A stretch of DNA of 62,877 bases from Patescibacteria group bacterium (GTDB taxonomy: Bacteria > Patescibacteriota > Microgenomatia > UBA10105 > UBA927), in contig JBGSUE010000032.1 of assembly GCA_041753515.1 (NCBI GenBank), positions 1 to 62,877 on the forward strand. Reading direction: 5' to 3'. The first letter of the stretch is position 1. Each line of letters starts with the position of its first letter. Of this stretch, positions 2,517 to 33,461 are shown piece by piece. The translations under genes were made by a program, and so were the position numbers. The notes below the pieces were generated by a model that did not search any database, was not told the DNA's origin, and was given only the letters and a program-made list of their open reading frames with translations.

Positions 2517-3476
2517 ATGGATATCCTCTACAACCCCATATTTCTTGACCATGATACCGGCGAGCATCCCGAGAACAGAAAACGTTTGGAGGCATTCGGT
2601 GCAATACAGAGTACTAATATACAGGACGGAAGCAAGTATCTGACCTTGGTTCATACTCCTGTGTACATTCAGTATGTAAAGGATGCCTGTGAAAACGGAT
2701 CGCATTTGGATGCCGATACTCCCACATCCCAGCGGTCGTTTGATGCGGCAACTCATGCGGTCGGTGCAACAGTACTTTCAAGCGAAAAAGGCGCATTTGC
2801 TCTTGTGCGACCTCCGGGTCATCATGCACATCCTACCCGCGCCGGAGGATTTTGTATTTTCAATAATATTGCCATCGCGGTACAAAAATTAGTGAACGAT
2901 GGGAAAAAAGTACTTATCTTTGATTTTGACGGGCATTTGGGTGACGGGACGGATGAATATTTTTATCACAGCGACACAGTGATGTACATATCGTTCCATC
3001 AGGATCAGGTATTTCCCGGAGGCGGGGCTCTGGAGTTGATCGGAGATGGAAAAGGGAAAGGGTATACGATCCACTTTCCGTTTCATGCCGGCAGTGGTGA
3101 CGATGTGTATCTTCATGTTCTGGACAGTATTCTGCCGGTCGTTTCCCAATTTGCCCCGGATATAATCGGTTTTTCTGCAGGGTTTGATGGGTATCATGGC
3201 GATACCCTGTTGCGGTTGCGGTTAAGTATGGGGTGTTATTTTCAGATAGGTAAACGGTTCAGTAGTTTTTCCTGCAATAAATTTGCGGTCCTTGAAGGGG
3301 GATACAATACTGAGGCACTTCCCAAATGCGTTAAAAATTTTATTGCAGGCATTGACGGTAAGTGTGAAATACCCTACGCTGATGCCGCAACAGATACCCA
3401 TTTTCTGGAGTTGGAAAGCGTGAATGAAAAACTTAAGAATCTGAAAGAACTGCTTTCACCATACTGGAAACTATGA
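2517..3476 (+). CDS. Zn-dependent histone deacetylase-family deacetylase (HDAC/AcuC/acetylpolyamine amidohydrolase-like)
   Basis: Contains RPPGHHA (His-His dyad), DFDGHLGDGT, GFDGY and LEGGY (catalytic Tyr) motifs in the canonical order. Confidence 0.85.
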   Translation: MDILYNPIFLDHDTGEHPENRKRLEAFGAIQSTNIQDGSKYLTLVHTPVYIQYVKDACENGSHLDADTPTSQRSFDAATHAVGATVLSSEKGAFALVRPPGHHAHPTRAGGFCIFNNIAIAVQKLVNDGKKVLIFDFDGHLGDGTDEYFYHSDTVMYISFHQDQVFPGGGALELIGDGKGKGYTIHFPFHAGSGDDVYLHVLDSILPVVSQFAPDIIGFSAGFDGYHGDTLLRLRLSMGCYFQIGKRFSSFSCNKFAVLEGGYNTEALPKCVKNFIAGIDGKCEIPYADAATDTHFLELESVNEKLKNLKELLSPYWKL

Positions 3477-9895: not shown

Positions 9896-11572
9896 ATGAT
9901 CACACCTGCCCAATTTCGGGATATTATCCTTAAATCCGGATTTGTATCTCCCCAAGATTTTGACGGTGCAGTTAAGGCTGCAGATGAGCTTGGAAAAGAC
10001 CTTACTGATGTGTTGGTGTCACGCGGTCTTGTCAGTGAAGATGCGCTTGGACAGATTATCGGTGACTTTTATCAGGTTCCGTTCATTAAACTGAGTTCGA
10101 AAGTGATTCCTCTTCATACTCTTGAGATTATTCCGGAAGAGGCAGCAACGACTTTCAGGGTTATACCTGTAGAAACTGACAACGCAACCGTATCAGTCGC
10201 AATGCAGGATCCGGCAGATTTGGAGGCGCGTGAGTTTATTAAAAGAAAAAGCGGAAAAAAGCTGAGGATTCTGTATGCCTCACCAAGCGAAATTTCCTCT
10301 GCGATCGGTCAATACAAAAAAAATATTAAAGACATATTTACACAGATCATTGATGAGAATATCCAGAAATCCACTGAAAATACTGTAAGTGATCGGGAGC
10401 TTGGATCTGATCTACCTGTCATAAAAATTCTTGATACTATTCTTGAATACGCTCAGGCAGAACGTGCAAGCGATATTCATATTGAGGCTTCGGGAGATGC
10501 GTTTCTCGTCAGATTCCGGATAGACGGAGTACTTCATGACATATTAACACTGCCGAAAAATTTGCATCCTTCCATTGTTGCACGCATCAAAATTCTGTCA
10601 CAGCTGAAAATTGATGAACACAGAATTCCGCAGGATGGAAGGTTTAAATTCAAGATTAACGAATCGGATATAGCACTTCGTGTATCCATATTGCCGTCGT
10701 TTTTTGGTGAAAATATCGTTCTTAGGATCCTTTCAGAATCAGCCAGACCACTGTCGTTTGAAGAATTGGGGATAACCGGACATAATCTAGAGATAGTCAA
10801 GGCTAATATTAAAAAACCGCACGGGATGATTCTTGTGACAGGACCAACAGGATCGGGAAAAACTACCACACTGTACAGCGTGCTCAATATTCTCATATCA
10901 ACAGAGGTGAAAATTTGTACGCTTGAGGATCCGGTTGAATATGGCATAAAGCGCGTGAACCAGACACAAGTGAATCCGAAAGCAGGATTAACGTTTGCAG
11001 CAGGTTTAAGATCCTTACTGCGGCATGATCCTGATATTATCATGGTTGGAGAAATCAGGGATGAGGAGACTGCTGAAATGGCTATCCATTCTGCGCTTAC
11101 CGGTCATCTTGTGTTATCGACTCTTCATACCAATGATGCGGCAAGTACCATGCCGCGGTTTTTGGATATGGGAGCAGAAGGTTTTCTTGTAGCTTCAACG
11201 ATCAATCTGGTTATTGCCCAACGCCTCGTACGGAAAATTTGTACGTCCTGTATCGAACCATATACCCTTACGGGAGAAACACTTCATTATGTACAATCGT
11301 TGTTGGGGGAAGAAGGAATAGCAAATACCTTTTACCATGGGCGTGGCTGCGGAGAATGTAATAATAAGGGGTACAAAGGGAGGGTCGGAATATTCGAGAT
11401 TCTTGAAATTAATGAAGAAATCAGACAAAGTATCATACGGCATGCATCGGCTGAGGAAATTACAAAAATTGGTCTCAAAAACGGTATGATACCGCTAGTG
11501 CGTGATGGGGTGAACAAGGCAAGCGGTGGAATTACAACCATTGAAGAAGTTCTTCGTGTCATCAGGGAGTAA
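9896..11572 (+). CDS. pilB: Type IV pilus assembly ATPase PilB (GspE family)
   Basis: T2SSE N-domain, Walker A GPTGSGKTTT, Asp box, Walker B IIMVGEIRD, His box, and tetracysteine CTSC...CGEC. Confidence 0.9.
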   Translation: MITPAQFRDIILKSGFVSPQDFDGAVKAADELGKDLTDVLVSRGLVSEDALGQIIGDFYQVPFIKLSSKVIPLHTLEIIPEEAATTFRVIPVETDNATVSVAMQDPADLEAREFIKRKSGKKLRILYASPSEISSAIGQYKKNIKDIFTQIIDENIQKSTENTVSDRELGSDLPVIKILDTILEYAQAERASDIHIEASGDAFLVRFRIDGVLHDILTLPKNLHPSIVARIKILSQLKIDEHRIPQDGRFKFKINESDIALRVSILPSFFGENIVLRILSESARPLSFEELGITGHNLEIVKANIKKPHGMILVTGPTGSGKTTTLYSVLNILISTEVKICTLEDPVEYGIKRVNQTQVNPKAGLTFAAGLRSLLRHDPDIIMVGEIRDEETAEMAIHSALTGHLVLSTLHTNDAASTMPRFLDMGAEGFLVASTINLVIAQRLVRKICTSCIEPYTLTGETLHYVQSLLGEEGIANTFYHGRGCGECNNKGYKGRVGIFEILEINEEIRQSIIRHASAEEITKIGLKNGMIPLVRDGVNKASGGITTIEEVLRVIRE

Positions 11573-11574
11573 CC

Positions 11575-12789
11575 ATGCCGACGTTTACCTATAAAGCAAT
11601 CAATAAGGATAAAAAAATAAAAAACGGACAGATGTCTGCAAAGACAAGCAATGAGGTGGCAAATGAACTTGGAAAAAGCGGTTATGCACCTATTTTCATC
11701 AAAGAAAAATCTGAACAACTGCTGATAAAAGGATCCATTCCGACAATTGAAAAAATTACGTTCTGCAGGTATCTCTCAATTATGCTTTCAACAGGCATGT
11801 CCCTGTCTGAAGGAATAGATGTCTTGCGCAGTGAAACGAAAAATCCGCTCATGAACAGAATTCTGTCTGATATGAGTTACAGTCTGGAACAGGGGCAGCA
11901 GCTGTCAACGATTTTCGAGCGGTATCCTGGAATATTCGAATCGTATTTTCTGACACTGACGCGTGCAGGTGAAGTGAGCGGAAAACTCGCGGAAGTATTT
12001 AAATATCTGGAAACGGAACTTCGTGCTGAATACAACCTGAATTCAAAAGTGAAAGGCGCCCTTTTGTATCCGGCAATCGTGTTTACGGCAATGATCGTTA
12101 TCGGTATTATGATGTTTTTCTTTGTCCTTCCCCAGATCGGACGGGTATTTTTGAATCTCAATCTTCCATTACCCGCCCCGACCAAATTTATGTTTTCATT
12201 CAGCATTCAGCTTCAGGGGTATATGGTCCCCATACTCATCGGTATGATTGTTTTTGTTATTGCATTTGCGTTTGCACTAAAGAAACGGTCTGTCAGGGAT
12301 GCGCTGTTTAGACTGATAAAACCGATTCCGGTGATCAATAACCTGATCAGGGAAATTGATCTGGCCCGATTTGCCAGAATTTTTTCAACGCTACTTCGAA
12401 GTGCTGTACCCATAACCGAAGCATTAGAAATCTCCCTCTCGTCCCTTTCGTTGCCTGAGTACAGATCGCTGGCAACAGTCATACCGGATACTATCAAACG
12501 GGGGAAGTCGCTTTCTTCGGCAATGAAGGACACACATGTTTTTCCGTCTCTTATGGTTCAGATGACCGTAGCCGGCGAAAAAACTGGCACACTTGATTCT
12601 ATCTTAGCCGATCTTGCATCGTTTTATGAACAGGAAGTTGAGGAGGCAGTGAAGAGCCTGACACAAATTATCGAACCGGTCCTTATGTTGATTGTTGGTA
12701 TTGCGGTTGGTGCCATGATCCTCTCCATTATCGCCCCGATATACTCCGTAGTGGGTAATTTTCAGCAAGCTGCAGGTGGTCCGAGATAA
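11575..12789 (+). CDS. pilC: Type IV pilus platform protein PilC (GspF family)
   Basis: 404 aa. Two GspF repeats, each with TM segments, and typical PilC length. Tightly follows pilB. Confidence 0.9.
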   Translation: MPTFTYKAINKDKKIKNGQMSAKTSNEVANELGKSGYAPIFIKEKSEQLLIKGSIPTIEKITFCRYLSIMLSTGMSLSEGIDVLRSETKNPLMNRILSDMSYSLEQGQQLSTIFERYPGIFESYFLTLTRAGEVSGKLAEVFKYLETELRAEYNLNSKVKGALLYPAIVFTAMIVIGIMMFFFVLPQIGRVFLNLNLPLPAPTKFMFSFSIQLQGYMVPILIGMIVFVIAFAFALKKRSVRDALFRLIKPIPVINNLIREIDLARFARIFSTLLRSAVPITEALEISLSSLSLPEYRSLATVIPDTIKRGKSLSSAMKDTHVFPSLMVQMTVAGEKTGTLDSILADLASFYEQEVEEAVKSLTQIIEPVLMLIVGIAVGAMILSIIAPIYSVVGNFQQAAGGPR

Positions 12790-12916
12790 ATGATACTTTT
12801 CGCTCCAGGATATGAATTTGAATTTTCAGAAATGATGAAATTAGGATTGCAGCAACTTTGAACTCATTATGCGTATGTGGCAATGATTCTGATATACTAC
12901 AATAGGATTATTGTTT

Positions 12917-14341
12917 ATGAAATCACTGCCCGATTTACTGCTTCCGAAAAAGAAATATTTTGGACTTTCTATTGAAAGAGCACGCATTACTGCCGTTGAG
13001 CTTGATACAGCCGGCAAGCCGATGCATTCGTATCACCAGTTGCTGCCTGATGATACATTTGAGGATGGAAATCTCAAGAAAAAGGAACAGTTTTTCGAGT
13101 CGGTCAGACACATATATATAAACGGCAAGTTTTCTACACCGTATGTATCCGTGTGTTTCCCTGAGGTGTTTGCGTTTACCCGCGGATGTGCGCTGTCCCG
13201 AACCGAAACTGATGAAATCAGCGATGCGATTACCTGGAGAATTAAAGATCTGTTTCCATTTCCGCAGAATGATATCTATTACGACTGGAAACTCCTGTCG
13301 TCCTCCGAAACGGACCATCAAACGATTGTCGTGGCAATCCAGAAGAAGCTTCTGGATGATTTGGTTGACGTACTGGTCCGGGTCGGTCTGAAGCCGTTGC
13401 GGTTTGAACCTGATGCCTCCGCCCTTGTCCGGCTTCTTCAGACTAAAAATATGCAAAAGGCACTCCTTGTGGAAGTAAACCCGAAAGGGGCATACATCAC
13501 TTTGGTGGACGGGGAAAAGGCAGTGTTTACAACTGTCATTAATAATACGAAGGATGATACTCCTGCGTCATATCTGTCAAATATTGATCAGACAATCCAG
13601 GAGATTACCGGATATTATTCATCAAAAGGCATTTTGGATGCGTCACAGACTCAAGTAGCAGTGACAGGTGACATGGCCTCAGTTGACTGGGTGAACCATT
13701 TAGGTACAATTCTTCATTATCCTACGACACTGCTACCTTCCCCTTTGAAAGACCAGAAATTTAACAAGGCTTTTGTCACTGCATATACTAAGATTGCCCC
13801 GCCCAGCGATTTTCATACAATCAATCTTCTTCCCACGGTGACGCAGCAATTCTATGACTTACAGAGTACTCTTCATCTGTATAGGACAATCATAGTCCGT
13901 ACCGGAATCATCTGTTGTATCGCAACATTTCTTTCTTTTCTATGCTATATAACCGTAACGGTTAAAAACCGCCAGACGGAGAATGAAGTGGCACGCGTCC
14001 GATCAGCTTCTCAACAGGAGATGAATGATACGCAATCACTCCTTTTATTAAATGCCCAGGCAAAGAATATCATACAGCTTGCCCCATTGAGAAAGACCCC
14101 CGCGCGTACCATAGAATCATTTTATTCCCTCTTGGATGAATCAGTTTCCATTTCAGCTTGGGAATATGATGATGCGAGACTATCGTATAAAATATCGGGT
14201 GTCGCAAAAACCAGGGATGCTCTTATAGCATTTAAGCAAAGACTGGAAGCATCTGATAATTTCGCAAATATTTCGCTTCCTTTGGATTCACTTGAATCAC
14301 CGGTAAACAGTATGTTTATGATGACGTTTCAGTTGCAATAG
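12917..14341 (+). CDS. pilM: PilM-PilN fusion protein (actin-like ATPase fold, TM helix, PilN-like periplasmic part)
   Basis: The N-terminus FGLSIERARITAVELD resembles PilM. An INLLP motif (the PilN N-terminal signature) precedes a single TM helix (IICCIATFLSFLCYITV). ATG 12917 is preferred over TTG 12911. Confidence 0.65.
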   Translation: MKSLPDLLLPKKKYFGLSIERARITAVELDTAGKPMHSYHQLLPDDTFEDGNLKKKEQFFESVRHIYINGKFSTPYVSVCFPEVFAFTRGCALSRTETDEISDAITWRIKDLFPFPQNDIYYDWKLLSSSETDHQTIVVAIQKKLLDDLVDVLVRVGLKPLRFEPDASALVRLLQTKNMQKALLVEVNPKGAYITLVDGEKAVFTTVINNTKDDTPASYLSNIDQTIQEITGYYSSKGILDASQTQVAVTGDMASVDWVNHLGTILHYPTTLLPSPLKDQKFNKAFVTAYTKIAPPSDFHTINLLPTVTQQFYDLQSTLHLYRTIIVRTGIICCIATFLSFLCYITVTVKNRQTENEVARVRSASQQEMNDTQSLLLLNAQAKNIIQLAPLRKTPARTIESFYSLLDESVSISAWEYDDARLSYKISGVAKTRDALIAFKQRLEASDNFANISLPLDSLESPVNSMFMMTFQLQ

Positions 14342-17158: not shown

Positions 17159-17911
17159 TCAGCTGATAAAGAGGATGTAATACAGGGCAGAAAGGATGAT
17201 TCTGTAGATTCCGAATGCGGTGAAAGTGTGTTTTTGGACGTAAGAGATGAAGAATCTGATGGCAAGAAGAGCGGTAATAAATGTCCCGATAAATCCAACG
17301 GCAAGGAGCATGAGTTCATTTTGAGAAAATGAAAAAGAAGATTTGAAAAGATCAAGGCCGGCTGCAGCAGCCATGGTGGGAATGGCCAGAAGAAAGGAAA
17401 ATTCGACCGCATCTTTTTTGGTCATACCCATGGCCATGCCACCCAGAATCGTTGCGGCAGAGCGCGATACACCCGGAATCATGGAAATACTCTGAAAAAG
17501 TCCGATACGGAACGCTTTGGATACTGTCATCTGTTGAGATGTCGAATTTTTTTGTCGAACGAACAGAAGACCGATACCACCTATAAACAGCGAGATAACA
17601 ACGACAAGCGCATTGCCAAGAAGATACGATTTGATGAATGAATAGAACATGAGACCAAGAATTGCGGTCGGAAGAAATGCGGTCAGAAGCTGTAACCAAA
17701 GAGATCTGTTGGAAATGATTTTTTTCCAATAGATCACGATTACTGCGAGTATTGCTCCGAGCTGGATGATGATCTCAAAACTTTTCGTAAATTCCGATTC
17801 CCCAATACCCATGAGACGGGAAACCAGAATCATATGCCCGGTCGATGAGACAGGTAAAAATTCCGTGACTCCTTCAACAACAGACAGGATGATTGCCTGG
17901 AGGATATTCAT
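17159..17911 (-). CDS. uppP: Undecaprenyl-diphosphate phosphatase UppP/BacA
   Basis: VEGVTEFLPVSSTGHM N-terminal signature, PGVSRSAATI motif, 8-TM profile. Confidence 0.9.
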   Translation of the reverse strand: MNILQAIILSVVEGVTEFLPVSSTGHMILVSRLMGIGESEFTKSFEIIIQLGAILAVIVIYWKKIISNRSLWLQLLTAFLPTAILGLMFYSFIKSYLLGNALVVVISLFIGGIGLLFVRQKNSTSQQMTVSKAFRIGLFQSISMIPGVSRSAATILGGMAMGMTKKDAVEFSFLLAIPTMAAAAGLDLFKSSFSFSQNELMLLAVGFIGTFITALLAIRFFISYVQKHTFTAFGIYRIILSALYYILFIS

Positions 17912-23026: not shown

Positions 23027-25399
23027 TCAGGTTTCTTGAGGTGTTGGGGTTGCCGGTGGCATCCTGCAGGTGTTTCCTGCGGGTTCCGTTCCTTTGGTGA
23101 AATATTCCTTCTTCCCTCCGTAACAGGGGATTTCTACTACTCCGGGAGGTTTCTCCGGAATGTTGTCCTGCTTGTCAGCAAGGAGAGAATTCATAATATC
23201 GTGCCAGATTGGGGATGCGCCGGTTACGCCGCTTGTGAGGGTCGGGTTCATGGGGGAATTATCATTGTTTCCCACCCAAACAGCCGTGAGAATTTCGGGT
23301 GTATACCCGATAGTCCAATTGTCCCGTTTATCATTGCTGGTTCCGGTTTTTACGGAAACGGTTTTTCCCGGAATGACAAGATCGGACCGCGGTCCGAATG
23401 CCGGAGTCCGGGCACTGTTGTCGCTTAAGATATTGGATATGATCCATGCCGTTTCAGTGCGGATTGCCTGAAGACCTGCGTCAGGTGTAAATTTATCTAT
23501 AACACGGCCAGTATAATCCGATACTTCAAGAATAGGCATGAGATTTCTGTGGACACCTTTGTTGGAAAGAGTCCCATACACTTGTGCCATTTCAATCATT
23601 GTCACATCGCCGCCACCAAGGGTAAGGGAGAGACCAAATCTGGTTGGATTATTCCAGGATTCGGTAATTCCCATCCGGATTCCTGTTTCCACCATTGTTT
23701 TGACTCCGATTTTAGCAAGAGTCTTTACAGCAGGAATGTTGTAGGAATTGGCAAGAGCCGAACGCAGAGTGACTGTCCCATGATACCGTCCGTCGTAATT
23801 GACCGGTGTGTAGGGTTCACTTCCGGGAATTTTGTAGGTTATGGGAGAATCGTTGATAAGCGTTGCCGCACTAAATCCGTTTTCCAGAGCTGCGGCATAA
23901 TTCACAACTTTAATCGAGGAACCTGGCTGTCTCAATCGTGTGGATACATTTACATTACCGTCATTCTCGTAATCAAAATAGTTGGCGCTTCCCACCATTG
24001 CAAGTATTTCTCCGGTTGTCGGGTTTGTGACGAGTGCGGCACCGTTGCCCACGTTTAATGGTTTGAGAGCGCTGATATGCCGGGATACAGTCTGTTCTGT
24101 CAGTGTTTGGATGTCGGAATCCAGTGACGTGACAACGCGCAAGCCCCCCTGTTGGATCAACCGGGCACCGTAGCGTTTTTCAAGAAGATCTTTGACAAAC
24201 ATGACAAAATGTGGCGCCTTTATGCCACTGTCCTGTTGGCGATACACGATCGGTTCATCCAGTGCGGTATTGTATTGATCTTCGGAAATATATCCGTCAT
24301 CACGCATTCTGCGCAGCACTTCTCTTTGTCGCACTATCGCAAGATCGGGTTTGGCTCCGAACGGTGAATACGTGCTTGGTGCTGCCGGGAGTCCGGCTAA
24401 AAGTGCCGCCTCGTTTAGGGTCAGATCTTTGACTGATTTGCCGAAATACATTCGGCTTGCGGATTCAATTCCCCACGCAGTCCCGCCGTACGGCACCTGA
24501 TTTAAGTACATTTCAAGAATCTGGTTTTTTGAATAGATGCGTTCCGCTTCAAGTGACAAAACAAGTTCTTTCAGTTTTCGTGTAATGGTTATTTCAGGAG
24601 TAAGAAGGGCAGATTTGATGAGCTGTTGTGTGATAGTTGAACCACCCTGCAAATGGTCGTTGCGCAAGGTTTCATTGGCAGCCCGTGCAATACCCCGAAG
24701 GGAGAAGCCTGGGTGCGTATAAAACTCACGATCCTCAATTGCGATTGTTGCTTTCTGTACTATATCCGGAATTTCATGAAGTGGGAGCGGGGTTCGGTTT
24801 TCATCCGCGTATATCTCGTAGAGTACTGTACCGCTACGGTCATAAATTTTTGTCGCAACGGGAATGGATCGGGCGGATAAAAGGATCGGGCTGGGAAGCT
24901 GATCCATCCATGATGTATAGACATACGGCAGAAAAACAAAAAAAAGTGCTGCACAGACACCCAGGAAAAAAGATTGGAACCTCCATGCCAAGTGCAGAGG
25001 TGCAGGGTAGACGGTGAGAGGCCGTTTTTTTGACGCTCTGGGCCCCATCCGTACCCGTAATTTCCATAATACTGTGTGTATGGCATCATTCGCCTTTTGG
25101 AACGGAATGAGGGTCATTAATAATAGTTTTTTGAGATATGAAAACCGGATAAATGGCATGGCAAAACGGAGTGCCTCTTTGAGTGAAGAGTAATAAATCT
25201 TTGGGAGTTTGGACCATTGAGGTTCGAGTATTTTCTTTTTCCTTCGTGATTTTTTCTGCTGGATAGTCCATGGTGAAAATGCTGTTGAGATGAGCCGGAA
25301 GGGAAAAAGGAACACAGCGGCAAGTATTTTCTTTACGCCATCCCCGATTGCTATAAGTCCGTCAATAATTCCCATGATGATGGCAGTAATAATATACAT
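23027..25399 (-). CDS. Class A penicillin-binding protein (glycosyltransferase GT51 + transpeptidase), paralog A
   Basis: GT51 motifs EDREFYTHPG, GGSTITQQL and RKLKE. Transpeptidase motifs SSIK (SxxK), SYN (SxN) and KTGT. Confidence 0.9.
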   Translation of the reverse strand: MYIITAIIMGIIDGLIAIGDGVKKILAAVFLFPFRLISTAFSPWTIQQKKSRRKKKILEPQWSKLPKIYYSSLKEALRFAMPFIRFSYLKKLLLMTLIPFQKANDAIHTVLWKLRVRMGPRASKKRPLTVYPAPLHLAWRFQSFFLGVCAALFFVFLPYVYTSWMDQLPSPILLSARSIPVATKIYDRSGTVLYEIYADENRTPLPLHEIPDIVQKATIAIEDREFYTHPGFSLRGIARAANETLRNDHLQGGSTITQQLIKSALLTPEITITRKLKELVLSLEAERIYSKNQILEMYLNQVPYGGTAWGIESASRMYFGKSVKDLTLNEAALLAGLPAAPSTYSPFGAKPDLAIVRQREVLRRMRDDGYISEDQYNTALDEPIVYRQQDSGIKAPHFVMFVKDLLEKRYGARLIQQGGLRVVTSLDSDIQTLTEQTVSRHISALKPLNVGNGAALVTNPTTGEILAMVGSANYFDYENDGNVNVSTRLRQPGSSIKVVNYAAALENGFSAATLINDSPITYKIPGSEPYTPVNYDGRYHGTVTLRSALANSYNIPAVKTLAKIGVKTMVETGIRMGITESWNNPTRFGLSLTLGGGDVTMIEMAQVYGTLSNKGVHRNLMPILEVSDYTGRVIDKFTPDAGLQAIRTETAWIISNILSDNSARTPAFGPRSDLVIPGKTVSVKTGTSNDKRDNWTIGYTPEILTAVWVGNNDNSPMNPTLTSGVTGASPIWHDIMNSLLADKQDNIPEKPPGVVEIPCYGGKKEYFTKGTEPAGNTCRMPPATPTPQET

Positions 25400-25486
25400 T
25401 TGACTGTATTTGGAAATAACTCAAAGCGAAGAATTCCATCTGATTTATATCACATCCTATGGGCCTGAAGCAAGAGGGAAGAAGTG

Positions 25487-28400
25487 TTACGAAATTTTAT
25501 ACCAACGGGTAATGGTTTTTGCACTGGTAATTGGAAAGTCAAAACGAGTTTCATTATCTTCGCGTATATATTTCTCTTTAAAATAATCATAGACGCCTTC
25601 TCCGACACGGTTTGTGAGGGCATGCCAATCGGTCTGCTCTGGAATAAACACCTGGGTAATGCCGTTATCGTTGGAAAATTGCTTGACCATGTCAATCATC
25701 TGATCGCACAGAATGTCTACGTTTTCACGGTTTACAATACTACTTGAAGGATTGAAACCACGGAAGATGAGAGCTTTTTGTCCATAGTGTTCAAGTATAT
25801 ACCCTTGGATATTTCCGACGCAGATATTGTCTTTGACAAGATTCATATGGAAATGGTCAGGCCGGTTGAAAAGTTCAATGTCTCCTGCAGTGCATACACC
25901 TGCGGTTGTCTTGGCAAAATAAGACGCGGCATTTTTGGATACATATCCGGTAAGAATAAGATTCGGATCAATCGCTGACCCTTCTTTTGTTTGATATATA
26001 ATTTTTCTATTCTCATTCGCCACCAGTTTTCGAAGTCCATTTTTTCCTGTAAAAAAACGCTGTTCGCTGATAAAAGCTAAAAGATGTCCGAGAGTCACAT
26101 TCGAGATTCCATTATTATGTATTTCCGATAAAGCCTGTTCTGTAATATTTTTCAATTCAAGTTTTGCTTCTTCGGAAATACTGCCGAAGTTTTTCTCTAT
26201 CTGGGTAATCCGTTTTTCATTTGCAAGATGTTGGAGCGATTTGAATATCTCAGGATTATCGTTCAAGTATTGAGCAGTTACTTCCGGAGCATTATCTTTG
26301 TAGTAAATTCCAAAAAGCTCTTGAGCTTTCCCAAGAGCCTTAGCGGTTTCCTTTGGTTGGGACGTATCAATCACAGCACTTTCAGTAAATTGTGCTAATT
26401 TATCTCCAAGCGTAATTCTGGCAATAGCCGCAATATCATGGCTTCTAGATGTAAACCACTCTTTTTGTTCAGCGCTTCCTGCCTGTTTTATCAGGTATGC
26501 AAATGCATCAGCTGCATGTTTAACGTCGCCTCCGGAATTCATGTATTCCATTGACTGGCTATTGGTGAATATAGATTGGAGTATACCGATTGTCCTCGTG
26601 TCAAAATTTTGTCCCTCTCTCAATGTTGCGATTTTTTCCTGTGATGAACTTGCTCCCTGGTATCCCTTTGGCCTAATTTTAATATTTATTAAATCATCAC
26701 AACGGTCTGATAATCTGGATAAATCCGTCTGTATGGAGGAATATGAAGTACCCGGAAATGAAAAAGCAATAGTTTCTGCCAATTGTTCGTTTGCGTTATT
26801 TGTATTCTGTTGTAACGGTTTATTAAGAAATATATCATGTTTAATTTGCCGAATTTTCTCAATAAACTCCTTGCGTTTATCTTCATTTTGCTCATTTACA
26901 TAATGAACAATCACTGAAGGTGATATGTTGCCAAACTCATCGATTGCATGGAAGAATCGTTCTTCAAAGAGCGGATCATTCAGAAATTCTTTCAGTTTTG
27001 GTCGTATGGCATCTGATGTAAGTGCTTGAACAGAACTTTTGAAACTGGTTGGTTTTGAATGGAGAATTTTTCGAAAGAAACGGGTTATATCATATTCGTT
27101 AGGTATATCAAGAATTTTATCTAAACTCATTCTGTCGGTATAGTATATATTTTCTGTTGTTAAACCGAGTGAGTCTTTTAGTTTTTCAAGATTTGAAATG
27201 CTGAAGTTTATAATAATATCCCGTGCCGTTTGATTGTTAACGATACTGCGGAAACGTTGAAAATTTTGAAAATCATAACCAGCCGCATGCGATTTCGTGA
27301 GAATATATTTATTGTTATTCCAGAAGAGATTCCGGTCCGGAATATCCGCATCCCAAACATGATCAAGAAGTTCTTTATGAAGATCTCCTAATTTGATCTT
27401 TAATTCCGGATTGAGTCGAATATAATTATCAACTACACGAAAAGCCCATGGATGATGCGGATCTAATGATGACAAAGATTCAGTTACCATTTCACTATTG
27501 TCAGTCAAACCTTTCGCATGGTTTATGAGCGTCCAAGTGTTTGCAGTTCGATCAAACGGAGGCATTTTTATTTTTAATTGTTCTTTGTATGGAAGTAGTT
27601 GGAGAATATCTTTAGCATGTTCCTCAATAAACCCAAAATTATAGCCCAAATAATTCATACCTTCATATATGGTATCCGTATTTTGCGAGAGGATTAAAAA
27701 GTTGGTATTAAGGTGAGTGGCTTGTTCATTTGCATCTTTGATTGTCATGTCGCCTATTGATAGGCAGATATTACGCCAATCTGATGGTTTTATGGGTGAT
27801 GGAATACCCGGTATTTGAGTGTAAAATCCCTCCCATTTTTCAATAGCTTCTTTCACTGGTTTAAACCGTTCAGCGACGCGTATATCTTTGAAACCAGAAA
27901 GTTTTGCAGAAATAGTCCATGCGAGCTCAACTTCAGATATTGTTGGATTGTGCCGGTTGAATCCGATTGAATTTTCCGTAATTTTATTACCCATCAAGTC
28001 TAGGAAAGTGAGTATATTGTCGATTCTTTCAACGGGTAAATCAAACCAGAACGTATCAAAATCATTAATAACGTGTTTATTGTTTGTTAAGGTAGGCCTC
28101 AGGCCGTGTTTGAAAAAAATTGAAATTTTCTCGTCGAGATTTTGCATACTTAATATGTCCCTATGTCTTTGGTTTGACTGCTCTAACAATTCAGATGTTG
28201 CCCCTGTCATGTAGATTGATTCTATAGAAAAATCATAATATCTATGAATGTCAAAACCCTTTGCTGCTAAATGTTTAACATTTGGGTAATAGGAATCGAT
28301 TTTGTAGGCTTTATCTATTGAATGAGAAAATAGATTCTGTTCCATTTTTCTGGGGAAATTTTTAATTGTATTGTCTGCTGCAATTTCTCCGGCAATATAA

Positions 28401-29107
28401 AGAATACCCGGATTTTCTGTTTCTTTGATAATTCTTGGAACATCGTAAATAGAAATAATTGGATGATTCTGAAGGTCTATTTTTCGGTCAGGGTTTTGAA
28501 TGTCATAATTATTTGAGAAATGTACGATTCTTGCCATATGGCGCTGGACTGATTCAATATTTTCAATAACTTCTCGCGATATTTGTTTGTCTTTCGTCAG
28601 AGTGATGACAAGCGGTTCCCTCCATTTTCCGTCGATTTGAGAGAATTCTTGCAGATCCCAAACGCTTGTTTGATCCCTGACAGGTCTGATTTCGCAGGTT
28701 TTACTGACAAATTTTTGAATCGGATACAGCAGGGTGTCAAATTTTTTCAGATTTTCAACTGCCTCAGGATGTTCGCTGAAGTATTTGAGAAGATATCCCA
28801 TCCCATAGATTCCGGAACTATCAATATATTTATTCATAGTTCTATAAAATTGCTGAGGATTTTCTTGTGTCATGCAGGCTTTAATGAGTACATCATAGCT
28901 TTGGTCATATTTGTGAGGTTTTGGAACGTGTCCTTCATCAAATGGATCTGCCATCTGTGTTTCCAGAAACCGAACGAATTCGATTGCCTTTTTTGGTTGC
29001 TCAATCCCAATATGTTTGAAGTGCTTTTCCATGGCAATATTTCCGCCTACTTTTGCAGGCAGTTTCGCGGCTGCTTCGGCGACTAGTTGTTTTATCGGTT
29101 CACCCAT
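25487..29107 (-). CDS. Orphan giant protein (1206 aa), no recognisable domain
   Basis: Uninterrupted 3.6-kb ORF. Start set at MGEPIKQ (ATG 29107) because the longer ORF overlaps the divergent SDR gene. No TM helix, signal peptide, Walker A or HExxH seen. Visibly AT-rich. Confidence 0.7.
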   Translation of the reverse strand: MGEPIKQLVAEAAAKLPAKVGGNIAMEKHFKHIGIEQPKKAIEFVRFLETQMADPFDEGHVPKPHKYDQSYDVLIKACMTQENPQQFYRTMNKYIDSSGIYGMGYLLKYFSEHPEAVENLKKFDTLLYPIQKFVSKTCEIRPVRDQTSVWDLQEFSQIDGKWREPLVITLTKDKQISREVIENIESVQRHMARIVHFSNNYDIQNPDRKIDLQNHPIISIYDVPRIIKETENPGILYIAGEIAADNTIKNFPRKMEQNLFSHSIDKAYKIDSYYPNVKHLAAKGFDIHRYYDFSIESIYMTGATSELLEQSNQRHRDILSMQNLDEKISIFFKHGLRPTLTNNKHVINDFDTFWFDLPVERIDNILTFLDLMGNKITENSIGFNRHNPTISEVELAWTISAKLSGFKDIRVAERFKPVKEAIEKWEGFYTQIPGIPSPIKPSDWRNICLSIGDMTIKDANEQATHLNTNFLILSQNTDTIYEGMNYLGYNFGFIEEHAKDILQLLPYKEQLKIKMPPFDRTANTWTLINHAKGLTDNSEMVTESLSSLDPHHPWAFRVVDNYIRLNPELKIKLGDLHKELLDHVWDADIPDRNLFWNNNKYILTKSHAAGYDFQNFQRFRSIVNNQTARDIIINFSISNLEKLKDSLGLTTENIYYTDRMSLDKILDIPNEYDITRFFRKILHSKPTSFKSSVQALTSDAIRPKLKEFLNDPLFEERFFHAIDEFGNISPSVIVHYVNEQNEDKRKEFIEKIRQIKHDIFLNKPLQQNTNNANEQLAETIAFSFPGTSYSSIQTDLSRLSDRCDDLINIKIRPKGYQGASSSQEKIATLREGQNFDTRTIGILQSIFTNSQSMEYMNSGGDVKHAADAFAYLIKQAGSAEQKEWFTSRSHDIAAIARITLGDKLAQFTESAVIDTSQPKETAKALGKAQELFGIYYKDNAPEVTAQYLNDNPEIFKSLQHLANEKRITQIEKNFGSISEEAKLELKNITEQALSEIHNNGISNVTLGHLLAFISEQRFFTGKNGLRKLVANENRKIIYQTKEGSAIDPNLILTGYVSKNAASYFAKTTAGVCTAGDIELFNRPDHFHMNLVKDNICVGNIQGYILEHYGQKALIFRGFNPSSSIVNRENVDILCDQMIDMVKQFSNDNGITQVFIPEQTDWHALTNRVGEGVYDYFKEKYIREDNETRFDFPITSAKTITRWYKIS

Positions 29108-29114
29108 TGTGTAT

Positions 29115-29177
29115 ATTGTAGAACATAATGTGAATTTTGAGCATAATTTCACGTTTTTCGGAATCTTGATATATAAT
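29115..29177. promoter_or_regulatory. Divergent promoter region with back-to-back -10 boxes for the giant gene and the SDR
   Basis: Minus-strand TACAAT (29120-29115) lies 7 nt before ATG 29107. Plus-strand TATAAT (29172-29177) lies 6 nt before ATG 29184. No SD on either side. Confidence 0.45.
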
Positions 29178-29183
29178 TCAGGT

Positions 29184-29837
29184 ATGGAAAAAGTGGTGTT
29201 GGTGACCGGGGCGTCAAGCGGGATAGGGAAGGAACTTGTACGGGAATTTCGGAAGAAGAAGTATCTGGTGATTGCAACAGGCCGCACTGAACAAGCACAG
29301 CCTGAGTATATTGCTGGTGATATTACGAATAAGGAAACACGCGATAAGTTAAAAGTTGCAGTTGAAAAATGTGGAAAACTAGATATCCTGGTCAATAACG
29401 CAGGGATATCGTATATCCAACCGTTTGTGAAAAATACACCTGAAGACCTTGATCTTATACTGGATACAAATGTCAAAGCACCAATTCTTCTGACTCAACT
29501 CCTATATCCTTATTTGAAAAAATCACAGGGAACTATTGTATTTATCAATTCAGCAGCAGGTAGACAGGGATATCCGAAACATACTCTCTACTCCATGAGT
29601 AAATTTGCCATCAACGGATATTCACAGAGTCTGCGTCTTGAGGCAAAAAATGATGGAGTGCGCGTGATGAGTATCTATCCCGGAGGCGTACGCACCAATC
29701 TGTATGACAGGGTTCTGGAAAAACCGGATACCAGCCTCTACATGGATCCGGCAAAACTGGCGCAGTTGGTCGTCCACGCCGCAACCACAAACGGATTATC
29801 ACCGGACGAAATCGTCATCAGCCGATTGACGAAATAA
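29184..29837 (+). CDS. Short-chain dehydrogenase/reductase (classical SDR)
   Basis: TGASSGIG cofactor motif, NNAG, catalytic YSMSK (YxxxK). Confidence 0.85.
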   Translation: MEKVVLVTGASSGIGKELVREFRKKKYLVIATGRTEQAQPEYIAGDITNKETRDKLKVAVEKCGKLDILVNNAGISYIQPFVKNTPEDLDLILDTNVKAPILLTQLLYPYLKKSQGTIVFINSAAGRQGYPKHTLYSMSKFAINGYSQSLRLEAKNDGVRVMSIYPGGVRTNLYDRVLEKPDTSLYMDPAKLAQLVVHAATTNGLSPDEIVISRLTK

Positions 29838-29969
29838 GATTCCCGAGGTGTGAAGCTTATTTAGTGATGGTAAAAAAGAAGTCGAACTGTATCGGCCTCA
29901 CTCTCCGGATTTACGGCGAGGGTCCGCTTTTGCTCGACTATAAAAAGTTTATCAAATTTGATGAAAGAA

Positions 29970-30062
29970 GTCATTGCGAAGGAGTGAAGCGACTGAAGCA
30001 ATCCCGACCGGAAATGATACACCAATGGGATTGCCACGCTCATTTCATTCGCTCGCAATGAC
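29970..30062. repeat. Palindromic intergenic repeat, family 1, copy B
   Basis: GTCATTGCGAAGGAGTGAAGCGACTGAAGCAATCCC ... GGGATTGCCACGCTCATTTCATTCGCTCGCAATGAC. The ORFs at 29861..30064 on both strands are artefacts of it. Confidence 0.8.
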
Positions 30063-30078
30063 ATGATAATCGATTACT

Positions 30079-31008
30079 TCACAATCGTGGGGATATCGGT
30101 AGAATGTTTTCAGATAAGGAAACTGTGACTGGTTTTTTGCCCGGATAACTCGTAATAGTATTACCCGCTTTGAGACGGGTATCCCGCATGCATATTTGAA
30201 TACATCGTCGTAATGCTTCTGATGATGTATCTGTCGTCATGTCAGCAAGTTGATCAAATAAGGAAATTTCTACATTATCCAATTCAGATAGATTATTGAA
30301 TTTTTTATCGGCAAATTCGGTGTAGTCCCATGGCTGAAGCTCAACTTTGTTGAGGGCATTCAGATCCCTTACTATATTTGCCCTGATAAACCACCAGCCG
30401 TTGATCCCGGGAATTGTTGTACCAAACGTATCAGGATCTGCTTTTCCTTCCCTGCATAATTGCCAAGCTTTCCCTGCAGGAATAAAATTTTTATCGGTCA
30501 AATTTAGATTGTCCATATGTTGTAAACTGTAAAATAATCTTTCCTCATTGCCGATTTCGGAATCAATCATCACCCATCTGTGTTTTCTTCTATTCCAAAA
30601 CTCCGTTATCCAGTGATCATCATTGAATCCAGGATGCCAATACGCGGCAAAACCACAGCGGACGCGTGCCGGAATGTGATGATACCGGAGGACGGAAACG
30701 CAAAATAGGGCAAAATTCCGGCAGAGCCCGACAAATCTGTTTTCCGGTTTTCTTTCATCGGATAACGGTGCATTGTTTTGTTGATGGATGATATCCAGAA
30801 TATTTTCCATAAAGTGTTCATTTATGTGGGAGATATTATTTTCCGGAATGACACATGTATATATTTTTTCTGCTGCACTGGGGTGGATAAATAACCCGTG
30901 TGAGATTTTCGTAATTACTTCAATATCATTCGGAATATCTGCATATAAATATGAATACTTACCCGGATTACTCATGGTGCTTTGGGATATGTAATAATCG
31001 GGTGTCAT
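30079..31008 (-). CDS. Transglutaminase-like (Cys-His-Asp core) cytoplasmic protein
   Basis: Candidate triad: FVGLCRNFALF (Cys), DDHWITEFW (His), WVMIDSE (Asp). ATG 31008 is preferred, with TATAAT 8 nt upstream. Confidence 0.65.
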   Translation of the reverse strand: MTPDYYISQSTMSNPGKYSYLYADIPNDIEVITKISHGLFIHPSAAEKIYTCVIPENNISHINEHFMENILDIIHQQNNAPLSDERKPENRFVGLCRNFALFCVSVLRYHHIPARVRCGFAAYWHPGFNDDHWITEFWNRRKHRWVMIDSEIGNEERLFYSLQHMDNLNLTDKNFIPAGKAWQLCREGKADPDTFGTTIPGINGWWFIRANIVRDLNALNKVELQPWDYTEFADKKFNNLSELDNVEISLFDQLADMTTDTSSEALRRCIQICMRDTRLKAGNTITSYPGKKPVTVSLSENILPISPRL

Positions 31009-31105
31009 GCTCACAAATTATAGATATTTTACTTCTATTCCACAACGAGTATGAGAAGTTTTCCCAGGTGCAAAGCTATTCTCCCATGTGAAGACTTGAC
31101 ATAAC

Positions 31106-31142
31106 GGGATTGCTTCTCCGTGGGAACGGTATCGCAATGACA
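31106..31142. repeat. Family-1 repeat, solo right arm (copy C)
   Basis: GGGATTGCTTCTCCGTGGGAACGGTATCGCAATGAC. No matching left arm upstream. Confidence 0.7.
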
Positions 31143-31150
31143 CTATTCTA

Positions 31151-33400
31151 TTATTTCACAATCGTTGGTTTTGTGTCGGTGTGGGGGCAGTCGAGGCAGT
31201 ATTGGGAGAGTGGATCTTTGACGATTTGCCTCTCTACGACCTCGGTGTTTTCGCTGACTCCGTACGGCGCCAGATCCTGCGTCGCCTTATCGATGATTGC
31301 CGCCTGTTTCAGATTTTCAATCTCCGTTGGGACAGTCCCTTTGATAAAATATTCAAATCTGGTCGGACATGCTCCGTCCGATGCAGGTTTGAGTCCTGTG
31401 AGCGAGCAGACCTGTGCGCCAACCACACCCTCCGGCTGTTTGGGCCAGATATCCGGTTGGTTTTCAAGAAGATGTCTCATGATTTTATTCCAGATCGGTG
31501 CGGCACCGGTCACACCGCTTGACAGATACGGATGCATGGGAGAGTTGTCGTTGTTACCGACCCAGACGGAAACAAGAAATTGGGGTGTATATCCAATGGT
31601 CCAGTTGTCGCGTTTGTCATCCGTCGTGCCTGTTTTTACCGATACGGAATGGTTGGGGATGACGAGCTCGGATTGTGAACCAAATGCAGCACTTCTCGCA
31701 TTATTATCCAGGAGGATGTGGGAAATAAGAAATGCTGTTTCAGGCGATATGACCTGCTCTCCCTGAATAAGAAGTTGTGATGGGATGTCCGATTCCATAT
31801 TCGGGTCATTGTGCTCATGGAGGACCGATCCGTTTTTATCCGCGACTTTGGTGATGGCAACAAGGTCTTTGCGGATGCCACCGTTTGCAAATACCCCGAA
31901 TGCGGTTGCCATATCCGTCATATGTACTTCGCCTCCCCCCAATGTCAGCGACAGTCCGTAATGGGAGGGATCCTTGAGTGTCGTGAGGCCAAACGCACTC
32001 GCACTTGCAACGAATTCTTCCACGGTATTAAGCTTCAGCATTTTGACGGCAGGGATATTCAACGAATTTCCCAGAGCAAAACGGAGTTGTGTCGGCCCCC
32101 GGAACGTGCCGTCGTAGTTCCTGGGGCAGTAGGACGGCTGGCCAGTTACAACAAAGCAAGTAGGGATGTCCAGAAACATGGTGGCAGGAGTGACGATGTT
32201 CCGGTCGATTCCTATGGCATAATTGATCGGTTTAATCGATGATCCGGGCTGGCGAAGGGCAGTGGTGACATTGTATGAGCCGGAGGGGGTGGCAAAATAA
32301 TCCGTACTTCCGATCATGGACAGTATTTCGCCTGTTGCCGGTTTTGTGACAAGGACTGCGCCATTGCCCACGCGTAAACCGGCGAGTTTTTCAATCTCGG
32401 ATGCGACCGTTGCCTGAATATACTCATCCAGATCAAGATCAAGAGTCGTTATTACCTTGAGTCCTCCCCGCTCTACCATATTTTCTCCGTACATTTCCAC
32501 GAGCTGTTCCTTGACATACATGACAAAATGCGGAGCTTTAATATTGCGGGGCTGTGCAAAGATGAGCGGTTCATTTTTTGCAGTATCTGCTTCCTTTTGG
32601 CTGATATATCCGTCCTCCGCCATACGGCGCAGAACATCTTTTTGCCGCTCACCTGCCAGTTCCGGATGGGATCCGAATGGTGAATAGAGCGTCGGGGCTT
32701 GCGGAAGTCCTGCAAGAAGTGCGGCTTCGGGCAGTGTGAGATCTTCGACATTTTTTGAAAAATATTTTTCTGCTGCAGTTTCAATTCCCCACGCGGTCCC
32801 TCCATATGGTACCTGGTTTAAATACATCTCGAGGATTTTTTCTTTCGGATAAAGAATTTCCACCCAGAATGCAAGAATGATTTCCTTAATTTTTCTGATG
32901 ACGCTTCTCTCATTGGTCAGAAGTGCTGTTTTCACCAATTGCTGGGTAATTGTGGATCCTCCCTGCAGTTTTTTTCCTGTAAGTGTCGCGACCGTTGCCC
33001 GCAGCATGCCGCCTACAGGGTTTACACCCTGGTGTTTATAAAAATCCTTATCTTCGATTGCAATTGTCGCTTCCTGGACAACTTTGGGTATTTTGGATAA
33101 CGGTACCGGAGTCCTGTTCTGGTCGGCGAATATATCATATAAAAGCACGCCATGTCGGTCATAGACTTTTGTGGCCAACGGAATATCATAACTTGATAGT
33201 TTGGTTGGGGAAGGGAGATCCTTAAAAATGACCATATACGATCCGATGATCATGGATAAAGGCAGGATCCAGAAAAGGTATGCGAAGATCCGCCGCACGG
33301 ATATTTTTTTTGGTTTTGAACTGGCAAATCGGCCGCTGGTACCGCGTGTTACGGACTTCGAAAATGCGTGTTTACGTAGTGTATGTGATGATTTCGGCAT
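31151..33400 (-). CDS. Class A penicillin-binding protein (GT51 + transpeptidase), paralog B
   Basis: EDKDFYKHQG, GGSTITQQL, SSIK, SLN and KTGT motifs. Start moved to ATG 33400 because TATAAT (33413-33408) overlaps the first ATG and lies 7 nt before the second. Confidence 0.9.
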   Translation of the reverse strand: MPKSSHTLRKHAFSKSVTRGTSGRFASSKPKKISVRRIFAYLFWILPLSMIIGSYMVIFKDLPSPTKLSSYDIPLATKVYDRHGVLLYDIFADQNRTPVPLSKIPKVVQEATIAIEDKDFYKHQGVNPVGGMLRATVATLTGKKLQGGSTITQQLVKTALLTNERSVIRKIKEIILAFWVEILYPKEKILEMYLNQVPYGGTAWGIETAAEKYFSKNVEDLTLPEAALLAGLPQAPTLYSPFGSHPELAGERQKDVLRRMAEDGYISQKEADTAKNEPLIFAQPRNIKAPHFVMYVKEQLVEMYGENMVERGGLKVITTLDLDLDEYIQATVASEIEKLAGLRVGNGAVLVTKPATGEILSMIGSTDYFATPSGSYNVTTALRQPGSSIKPINYAIGIDRNIVTPATMFLDIPTCFVVTGQPSYCPRNYDGTFRGPTQLRFALGNSLNIPAVKMLKLNTVEEFVASASAFGLTTLKDPSHYGLSLTLGGGEVHMTDMATAFGVFANGGIRKDLVAITKVADKNGSVLHEHNDPNMESDIPSQLLIQGEQVISPETAFLISHILLDNNARSAAFGSQSELVIPNHSVSVKTGTTDDKRDNWTIGYTPQFLVSVWVGNNDNSPMHPYLSSGVTGAAPIWNKIMRHLLENQPDIWPKQPEGVVGAQVCSLTGLKPASDGACPTRFEYFIKGTVPTEIENLKQAAIIDKATQDLAPYGVSENTEVVERQIVKDPLSQYCLDCPHTDTKPTIVK

Positions 33401-33461
33401 GGCAACCATTATATATCACCGGTTCAAATTTTTCTTCATAAGAGATATATAATAGACGTGT

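Follow-up and report, generated by a model that had tools for sequence, protein, structure and literature searches.

A supposedly orphan giant protein of a Patescibacteria group bacterium belongs to a widespread, undescribed family with a predicted C-terminal GNAT-fold domain

The stretch of 62,877 nucleotides analysed here, contig JBGSUE010000032.1 of a Patescibacteria group bacterium (hereafter the window), carries a gene for a protein of 1206 amino acids, here called the giant protein, which an earlier sequence-only reading had described as an orphan without any recognisable domain. Our analysis places this protein, as a divergent member, in a large protein family that has not been described so far. 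The conserved unit of this family is a C-terminal module of ~550-640 aa, in which an all-alpha domain is followed by a single GNAT-fold domain, and which can stand alone. Judged from the alignments and the structural models together, the family membership plus the GNAT fold can be regarded as very likely. Overall we read the giant protein, with middling confidence and on the basis of predicted structures, as a divergent GNAT-fold transferase that probably acts on an aminoacyl-tRNA-type substrate.

The family came to light when 1.84 billion cluster representatives, of clusters defined at 50% identity, were searched exhaustively with HMMER. At E<=1e-3 this search returned 262 homologous clusters, of which 183 still matched at E<=1e-10 and 69 at E<=1e-30. 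With 262 such clusters, and with 39 loci found across the genomes of GTDB species, the description of the protein as an orphan restricted to one lineage could not be upheld. The best matches (E 1e-153 to 1e-76, 32-47% identity) extended over query residues ~540-1200, with alignments that started at residues 540-580; those of more distant matches started at ~670-715, and the most distant ones covered only residues ~1045-1162. The matched part ended at or near the C-terminus of nearly all hits, the exceptions being a few proteins with a C-terminal extension (P0049, P0089, P0097 and P0103). What the members have in common is therefore the C-terminal ~500-640 residues of the giant protein. Family proteins are ~550 to 3409 aa long, and one of them, P0151, a complete open reading frame (ORF) of 621 aa in a Patescibacteria metagenome-assembled genome (MAG) at NCBI, consists of essentially the conserved module alone.

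No credible match was obtained when the full giant protein was compared with Pfam, NCBIfam, PADLOC, PHROGs and the PDB sequences, nor when the PDB sequences were searched with family profiles, and none of 33 family members had a Pfam match on the conserved part. The matches of the full protein to Vps5, a mycolic-acid methyltransferase, L13 and glutaredoxin were noise (E 0.01 or worse). A match of the core to a Plasmodium falciparum glutaredoxin (E 7e-4) was rejected as a chance match, because the fold predicted by AlphaFold2 is GNAT and not thioredoxin and the cysteine does not lie in a CxxC motif. A homologue search with a k-mer (word-indexed) prefilter retrieved the giant protein itself only, and three proteins when run with the family profile; a scan of the genome collection with the whole giant protein found nothing, and exact-sequence contig look-ups with the giant protein and with the neighbouring penicillin-binding protein PBP_a had nothing on record. 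In cluster look-ups the family members went by no name other than "hypothetical protein" or were unnamed singletons. Literature searches did not yield a description of the protein family, and no relatives were found in the viral contigs of IMG/VR.

The structure of residues 661-1206 was predicted with AlphaFold2 from a 29-sequence family alignment (A2). The model had a mean predicted local distance difference test score (pLDDT) of 88.9 and a predicted template modelling score of 0.83, and comprised the all-alpha domain followed by an alpha/beta domain at residues 1036-1206. In the latter the elements occur in the order β1-α1-α2-β2-β3-β4-α3-β5-α4-β6-β7, which is the GNAT order (β1 1053-1057, α1 1060-1068, α2 1077-1080, β2 1085-1092, β3 1095-1107, β4 1110-1120, α3 1130-1147, β5 1152-1156, α4 1172-1179, β6 1186-1192 and β7 1198-1204). 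In a Foldseek comparison with the PDB, 49 of the top 50 matches were GNAT acetyltransferases, among which NatD/Naa40, GCN5/PCAF, the aminoglycoside acetyltransferases (AACs), PaiA and Naa50/60 stood at the top, with a probability of ~1.0 and target-normalised template modelling scores of 0.4-0.54. A model of the full-length protein, in which the conserved module was confident from about residue 566, led to the same list. For the helical parts of the giant protein Foldseek gave no structural match. The earlier suggestion of a compact globular C-terminal module was thus borne out, since ~170-190 residues show GNAT topology in the model; the statement that no domain can be recognised holds for matches in sequence databases but not for the predicted C-terminal GNAT-fold domain.

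Conservation was counted over 148 family representatives and was found to be concentrated in a set of polar and charged residues of this domain: K1058 (147/148), K1066 (138/148), C1072 (146/148), T1073 (144/147), N1099 (139/147), Q1101 (123/147), Y1103 (134/147), R1116 (143/146), G1117 (123/146), N1119 (147/147), P1120 (144/147), N1166 (119/143) and R1167 (134/142). A thiol-dependent site formed by clustered cysteine and histidine residues had been proposed from the sequence; C1072, in the α1-α2 loop, is indeed near-invariant, but conservation does not extend to C1096 and C1134. Where GNAT motif A (Q/R-x-x-G-x-G/A) would be expected, the giant protein has R1116-G-F-N1119-P1120-S and the family R-G-x-N-P, followed by a variable loop of ~9 residues before helix α3. 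Of these residues R, N and P hardly vary, and both Gly positions of the motif are lost, so that, as far as the alignment tells, the canonical pyrophosphate loop for coenzyme A (CoA) is absent from the family. Likewise, the GNAT models of Pfam (Acetyltransf_1 and related) matched neither the giant protein nor any of the 33 members, and hhalign of the core profile against the GNAT domain of a Pat-like protein encoded in the window itself gave a probability of 0.2%.

The lost cofactor motif, the lack of a sequence link to active GNAT families and the highly variable N-termini would all agree with a non-catalytic, GNAT-like pseudoenzyme, in which the domain serves for binding or as a scaffold (for example of RNA or a peptide) and the helical regions serve for assembly. 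However, bacterial and archaeal members have retained a near-invariant polar and charged cluster (K, C, T, N, Q, R, N, N, R) at an overall identity of 25-45%, as is usual for active sites, and we regard a pseudoenzyme as quite improbable. Going by the predicted fold and the conserved cleft residues, the GNAT-fold domain is reasonably likely to work as a transferase of acyl or aminoacyl groups. C1072 may, judged by its conservation, be the catalytic nucleophile or a substrate-binding residue.

To one clade of the family, parts of an aminoacyl-tRNA synthetase are fused. The 1181-aa protein P0132 contains a complete aspartyl-tRNA synthetase (AspRS) of the bacterial type at residues 76-603 (E 8e-41 to AspRS in the PDB), followed by the module, and an N-terminus resembling an oligonucleotide/oligosaccharide-binding (OB) fold or AspRS is common to ~20 representatives. 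The chromosome of Pseudomonas sp. PLMAX (L041:2783-8489), among the hosts identified the one that is cultured and has a complete genome, and a contig assigned to Streptomyces sp. (L042:2812-8510) encode a protein of 863/864 aa that combines only a tRNA_anti-codon OB fold with the module, and in both the family gene directly follows a gene of 1034 aa for a nonribosomal peptide synthetase (NRPS) with A-T-C architecture. The two loci have the same architecture and no blastn similarity to each other. The Streptomyces record has a G+C content (GC) of 0.55, which is odd for this genus. Literature searches found no description of an AspRS-like fusion beside an NRPS gene.

The N-termini of the family in general split into many unrelated BLAST clusters. 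Among the clades we found unrelated helical regions, tetratricopeptide (TPR) repeats and full or degenerate AspRS. Residues 1-545 of the giant protein had no phmmer match in 150 family representatives or in 45 family loci. When residues 13-423 were aligned by hhalign with a profile built from the N-termini of the nearest subgroup (P0002-7, P0014, P0018 and P0050), a similarity with a probability of 89% and E 2e-6 was obtained, and hmmsearch gave E 1.5e-8; the controls of the hhalign comparison, one reversed and eight shuffled sequences, gave E>=0.25. From this similarity we concluded that the whole giant protein is a very divergent member of the closest subgroup. In the full-length AlphaFold2 model the N-terminal ~560 residues were mostly helical, with a pLDDT of 35-80 that was mostly below 70, and below 50 at residues 418-559.

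The distribution of the family was followed by scanning one genome per GTDB species with a 10-sequence core alignment (A3), which yielded the 39 loci mentioned above; 45 family loci were available overall. The 39 loci include Woesebacteria, Paceibacterota, Moranii-, Magasanik-, Falkow- and Kerfeldbacteria as well as Gribaldo-, Nomura-, Gracili-, Peri-/Peregrini- and Saccharibacteria. Outside the candidate phyla radiation (CPR) they comprise one Micrarchaeota (L023), Pseudomonas sp. PLMAX and a Streptomyces sp. Another member, P0025 (1329 aa), lies on an archaeal contig with genes for fibrillarin and diphthamide synthase, and its N-terminus has faint TPR matches. The family is thus concentrated in the Patescibacteria (CPR) and also present in DPANN archaea, and with its archaeal members (L005:9311-13990, L006 and L023, among them P0025) it is common to both groups. 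Several MAG records titled "uncultured Pseudomonadales/Gammaproteobacteria" (L008, L010, L011, L012, L044 and others) have a GC of 0.33-0.42 and a family gene of the CPR type; these titles look unreliable.

In loci closest to the giant protein, the family gene is immediately preceded, and sometimes overlapped, by a conserved ORF of ~70-94 aa. It was seen in six loci by BLAST clustering, five of which were confirmed by phmmer, and has no Pfam match (Table 1). The window has no counterpart, because the promoter region of a short-chain dehydrogenase/reductase (SDR) gene occupies that position. Directly upstream of the gene for P0151 there is a 93-aa gene with PF14402 (7TM_transglut; L001:9655-9936), a single case; no other locus hints that the family is linked to transglutaminase-related genes.

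A second clade is associated with diversity-generating retroelements (DGRs). In 10 of the 39 loci of the genome scan, a reverse transcriptase (RT) ORF runs into the beginning of the family gene and ends there, and in 7 of these 10 a bAvd gene is present too; a conserved neighbour gene of ~360 aa accompanies the family gene in 11 loci. The cassette has the order target, template repeat (TR), bAvd, RT, family gene (~868 aa), target. In L017 the TR at 549-665 matches two variable repeats (VRs), one at 98-214 and one, on the opposite strand, at 4632-4748, where the 360-aa gene has its 3' end. Of the mismatches, 16 of 17 and 13 of 14 fall on TR adenines, the hallmark of DGRs. In three loci the RT ORF is just a short piece of ~85-110 aa, possibly truncated, and the family gene is intact. 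From these loci one could propose that the family serves primarily in DGR mutagenic retrohoming, by handling template RNA or cDNA, and that the copy in the window is a stand-alone descendant. The overlap with the RT gene, the bAvd genes and the adenine-specific mismatches speak for such a retroelement accessory factor. Against it, no homologue of an RT, an Avd, a DGR target or a TR/VR pair was found in the window, most family loci are without an RT, and the clade closest to the giant protein has none. As an account of the giant protein we consider it extremely improbable. For the DGR-linked clade itself the arrangement suggests RNA binding and leaves the chemistry unspecified.

Taken together, the family suggests the following working model for the giant protein. 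A cleft lined by K1058, K1066, C1072-T1073, N1099, Q1101, R1116, N1119-P1120, N1166 and R1167 would accommodate an aminoacyl-tRNA or another RNA- or nucleotide-linked acyl group, which could be either the donor or the acceptor. In this model the RNA would be held by the all-alpha domain, and specificity for a target or partner, differing between clades, would come from the fast-evolving N-terminus. An aminoacyl-tRNA-type substrate appears most likely to us because the CoA loop is replaced, because four basic residues are near-invariant and because of the fusions with AspRS and with the anticodon-binding OB fold; a substrate of this type rather than acyl-CoA nevertheless remains a tentative assignment.

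Acyl-CoA is used by most GNAT-fold families. A classical acyl-CoA-dependent N-acyltransferase, with acyl-CoA in the β4/β5 cleft and an amine acceptor (protein or small molecule) that is chosen by the helical and N-terminal regions, has this prior in its favour, and all of the closest structures are acyl-CoA-dependent enzymes. In addition, the first two positions R-G of motif A are kept, at the frequencies given above for R1116 and G1117, and N1166-R1167 together with aromatic residues in α4 resemble motif B. It is countered by the replacement of G-x-G/A of motif A by the invariant N-P and a long variable loop, by the missing GNAT Pfam matches in the 33 members and the hhalign result with a bona fide GNAT domain, and by the AspRS and OB-fold fusions, which point to tRNA. 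We hold acyl-CoA dependence to be somewhat unlikely, and the RNA-linked substrate is favoured over it only slightly.

Several observations weigh against the RNA-linked substrate, beginning with the nearest structures just mentioned. The Foldseek E-values were weak (4e-3 to 6e-2), and no Fem, MprF or Leu/Phe-tRNA protein transferase structure was among the top 50 PDB matches. Unlike Fem and DUF2156 proteins, which contain a tandem pair of GNAT domains with a helical or positively charged element between them, the family module has one GNAT domain after an all-alpha domain. The giant protein itself contains no tRNA-binding or aminoacyl-tRNA synthetase domain, no gene near the giant gene in the window points to a substrate, and the DGR-linked clade does not obviously fit aminoacyl-tRNA chemistry. 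If an RNA-linked substrate is nevertheless assumed, one may picture clades that were recruited to different tasks: as an AspRS-fused partner of an NRPS, as a fifth type of DGR accessory protein that is translationally coupled to the RT, and as a stand-alone giant that, equipped with a hypervariable N-terminus, draws off charged tRNA for the modification of a target in the cell envelope or the host. In this full form the picture is speculative and rather unlikely to hold.

The giant ORF is a real gene. It runs from an ATG at 29107 to a stop codon at positions 25487-25489. The frame is open further up to a TTG at 29476, in a stretch that is antisense to the SDR gene, and the ATG at 29107 is the first start without overlap of that gene; it is a sensible start because the remote N-terminal homology begins at residue 13 counted from there. 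The gene had been ranked as the largest after rpoB; in fact no complete ORF listed for the window is larger, and the second largest encodes 1120 aa (58278-61640). Its GC is 0.372 (0.47/0.32/0.32 at the three codon positions, GC3 0.324), to be compared with 0.473 and 0.488 for the flanking genes for penicillin-binding proteins (PBPs) and a window average of 0.433. The gene is thus AT-rich relative to its neighbours; the AT skew that had been noted is ordinary for a minus-strand gene in this window. We also confirmed that the giant protein has no hydrophobic segment of the transmembrane type (maximum 19-residue Kyte-Doolittle mean 0.84), no Walker A or HExxH motif in a motif check and no significant internal repeats in a repeat search.

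The region between the giant gene and the divergent SDR gene is exactly 76 bp long and contains -10-like boxes near both ATGs, in agreement with the sequence-only reading. A consensus scan located TTCACG-18-TATAAT on the plus strand, ending at 29177, 7 nt before the ATG of the SDR gene, and TACAAT/CACAAT on the minus strand just upstream of the giant gene start at 29107. Such boxes are consensus matches in AT-rich DNA and common there (21 found versus 13.7 expected). No Shine-Dalgarno-like sequence was seen in the 76 bp. Leaderless starts of the two genes are plausible from this layout.

The giant gene lies with two other genes between tandem PBP1A paralogues, PBP_a and PBP_b (Table 1). Both companions are real genes as well, namely the SDR (adh_short, E 5.9e-45) and a transglutaminase-like gene (Transglut_core, E 5.7e-6). 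As a marker of the position of this genome, BipA puts the window among the Patescibacteria, closest to Gottesmanbacteria among named genomes (67-68% identity); other matches reach 76%, and the genome can be called Microgenomates/Gottesmanbacteria-like. The tandem arrangement of PBP1A paralogues is conserved among its relatives. When metagenomes were scanned with PBP_a, 79 loci of relatives were obtained (46-68% identity), and all of these PBP loci lacked the giant gene as well as both of its companions. Around the PBP pair, eight of them retain the gene order of the window (o35296, o33462, PBP_b, PBP_a, cupredoxin-like, RNaseH-like). For six of these eight (L047, L052, L066, L069, L070 and L071) the bounds of the PBP ORFs range from a ~40-bp overlap to a ~60-bp gap. 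Other inserts of 1.4-1.5 kb were found at the same spot, with a 417-aa ORF in L058 and a Cys-rich 316-aa ORF with a GC of 0.32 in L073. Because the PBP genes of relatives adjoin or hold other inserts, the segment is a lineage-specific insertion at a hotspot. The cargo genes differ in GC (giant 0.372, SDR 0.442, transglutaminase-like 0.401; PBP genes 0.47-0.49), and the value of the giant gene resembles that of the contigs of its closest homologues (0.33-0.36), which fits an acquisition from another CPR lineage.

In the sequence-only reading, the best candidate for an undescribed system had been the giant gene together with the SDR and the transglutaminase-like gene, with the giant protein as an orphan and plausible host-interaction factor and, as a speculation, a thiol active site. 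The three genes do share one insertion, the giant gene and the SDR share the 76-bp divergent region, C1072 is near-invariant, and the fact that the family is enriched in the episymbiotic CPR and DPANN lineages is compatible with such a role, though no more than that. However, none of the 45 family loci had an SDR or transglutaminase-like homologue within 8-10 kb flanks in phmmer searches with one query each, whose sensitivity for distant transglutaminase-like proteins is limited, and none of the 79 PBP loci had any of the three genes. The 262 homologous clusters, the missing transmembrane segment, the diverging GC of the three genes and the unrelated cargo at this spot in other relatives stand against the model as well. 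As a conserved system it is largely refuted, and as an explanation of the giant protein it seems very improbable. We concluded that the three genes share an island, as an accidental set of cargo, and not a conserved partnership.

On the strand that it shares with PBP_a, the giant gene is located 87 bp upstream of it. The proximity to PBP1A might suggest a part in peptidoglycan similar to that of Fem, an idea that was set aside, since the inter-PBP spot holds unrelated cargo in relatives and the family is elsewhere not found beside cell-wall genes; the position beside PBP_a is more likely incidental. A 25-nt direct repeat of 84% identity (30067-30091 and 31144-31168) spans the stop and last codons of the transglutaminase-like gene and of PBP_b, and may be a footprint of the formation of the insertion. 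Between the convergent SDR and transglutaminase-like genes, a 36-nt imperfect hairpin within 29970-30062 looks like a bidirectional terminator. Elsewhere in the window, at 3473-6148, 9896-14341 and 17159-17911, there are genes for the Pat-like protein acetyltransferase, which has NDP-forming acyl-CoA ligase domains in addition to its GNAT domain, for PilB-, PilC- and PilM-like proteins of a type IV pilus and for BacA/UppP. They are ordinary CPR content without a link to the giant gene.

Table 1. Positions of the features described in the text, in the window unless a locus of the family is named.
Feature	Position	Strand	Basis or remark
Complete gene, 1206-aa protein	25487-29107	minus	ORF listing and translation; ATG at 29107; stop codon 25489-25487
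Fast-evolving N-terminal region, aa 1-565	27413-29107	minus	predicted mostly alpha-helical, low to moderate confidence
Conserved all-alpha domain, aa ~566-1035	26003-27412	minus	family alignment A2, AlphaFold2 models; always precedes the GNAT-like domain in the family
Predicted C-terminal GNAT-fold domain, aa 1036-1206	25490-26002	minus	AlphaFold2 topology, Foldseek, conservation over 148 representatives
Divergent intergenic region, giant gene/SDR	29108-29183	.	76 bp; sequence and consensus scan
SDR, 217 aa	29184-29837	plus	adh_short; co-inserted with the giant gene
Transglutaminase-like gene, 311 aa	30079-31014	minus	Transglut_core; co-inserted with the giant gene
Lineage-specific insertion, 5.75 kb	25400-31150	.	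between tandem PBP1A paralogues
PBP_a	23027-25399	minus	PBP1A paralogue
PBP_b	31151-33409	minus	PBP1A paralogue
Small ORF upstream of family gene	L003:9793-10011, L004:2505-2720, L007:3-263, L008:3403-3678, L010, L011:1953-2234		
DGR-linked loci	L017:1-5700, L015, L018, L021, L024, L026, L029, L043, L044, L045		

Large unannotated proteins make up a sizeable share of the very small genomes of bacteria in the CPR and of DPANN archaea and are usually dismissed as orphans. In the case presented here, a supposed orphan belongs to a widespread family with a catalytic-type fold, near-invariant polar residues and an unusual cofactor loop. The AspRS fusions and the DGR reverse transcriptases are two independent genomic associations that point towards RNA-linked chemistry, and these associations at the level of the family are more noteworthy than the copy in the window itself. 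If the link to tRNA or to DGRs is true, the family would represent a new enzyme class in tRNA-dependent transfer or in retroelement-guided diversification. Proteins and residues that can now be tested are the stand-alone 621-aa form, the AspRS-like fusion of Pseudomonas and the residues C1072, K1058, R1116 and N1119.

Compared with known systems, the last ~170 residues of the giant protein share the core fold and the order of elements with GNAT N-acetyltransferases such as NatD/Naa40 (4ua3, 7kpu), GCN5 (5trm), the AACs (5f46, 1bo4) and PaiA (1tiq). The family differs from these in that it has no profile relationship to them, that R-G-x-N-P and a long variable loop replace motif A, that an invariant Cys-Thr lies in the α1-α2 loop, and that an all-alpha domain of ~470 aa always precedes the GNAT domain. 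The GNAT toxins TacT, AtaT and ItaT acetylate aminoacyl-tRNA and are small (~170 aa), canonical acetyl-CoA GNATs with an antitoxin. An aminoacyl-tRNA as acceptor, as in these toxins, would also explain the combination of a GNAT fold with tRNA-binding domains, but the giant protein has 1206 aa and a non-canonical motif. Like the DGR accessory proteins, the family gene of one clade lies inside the cassette and overlaps the 3' end of the RT gene. The described classes of DGR accessory genes are Avd, HRDC, MSL and CH1 (PMC5758913); none of these four is GNAT-like and the family is not homologous to them, nor did literature searches bring up a DGR accessory gene of GNAT type. With MprF/DUF2156, FemX/FemABX and the Leu/Phe-tRNA protein transferase the family shares a GNAT-type fold without a CoA motif, and, as in tRNA-dependent transferases, conserved basic residues surround the cleft of the module; Pfam models of DUF2156, FemAB and Leu_Phe_trans matched neither the giant protein nor the 33 members. 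Coupling to an aminoacyl-tRNA synthetase, known from LysX and ErdS, is seen in one clade of the family, and the giant protein itself is without such a part. ErdS is an AspRS fused to a GNAT-fold (DUF2156) aminoacyl-tRNA transferase (PMC7334510), and this clade resembles it in that an N-terminal AspRS is combined with a C-terminal GNAT-fold module.

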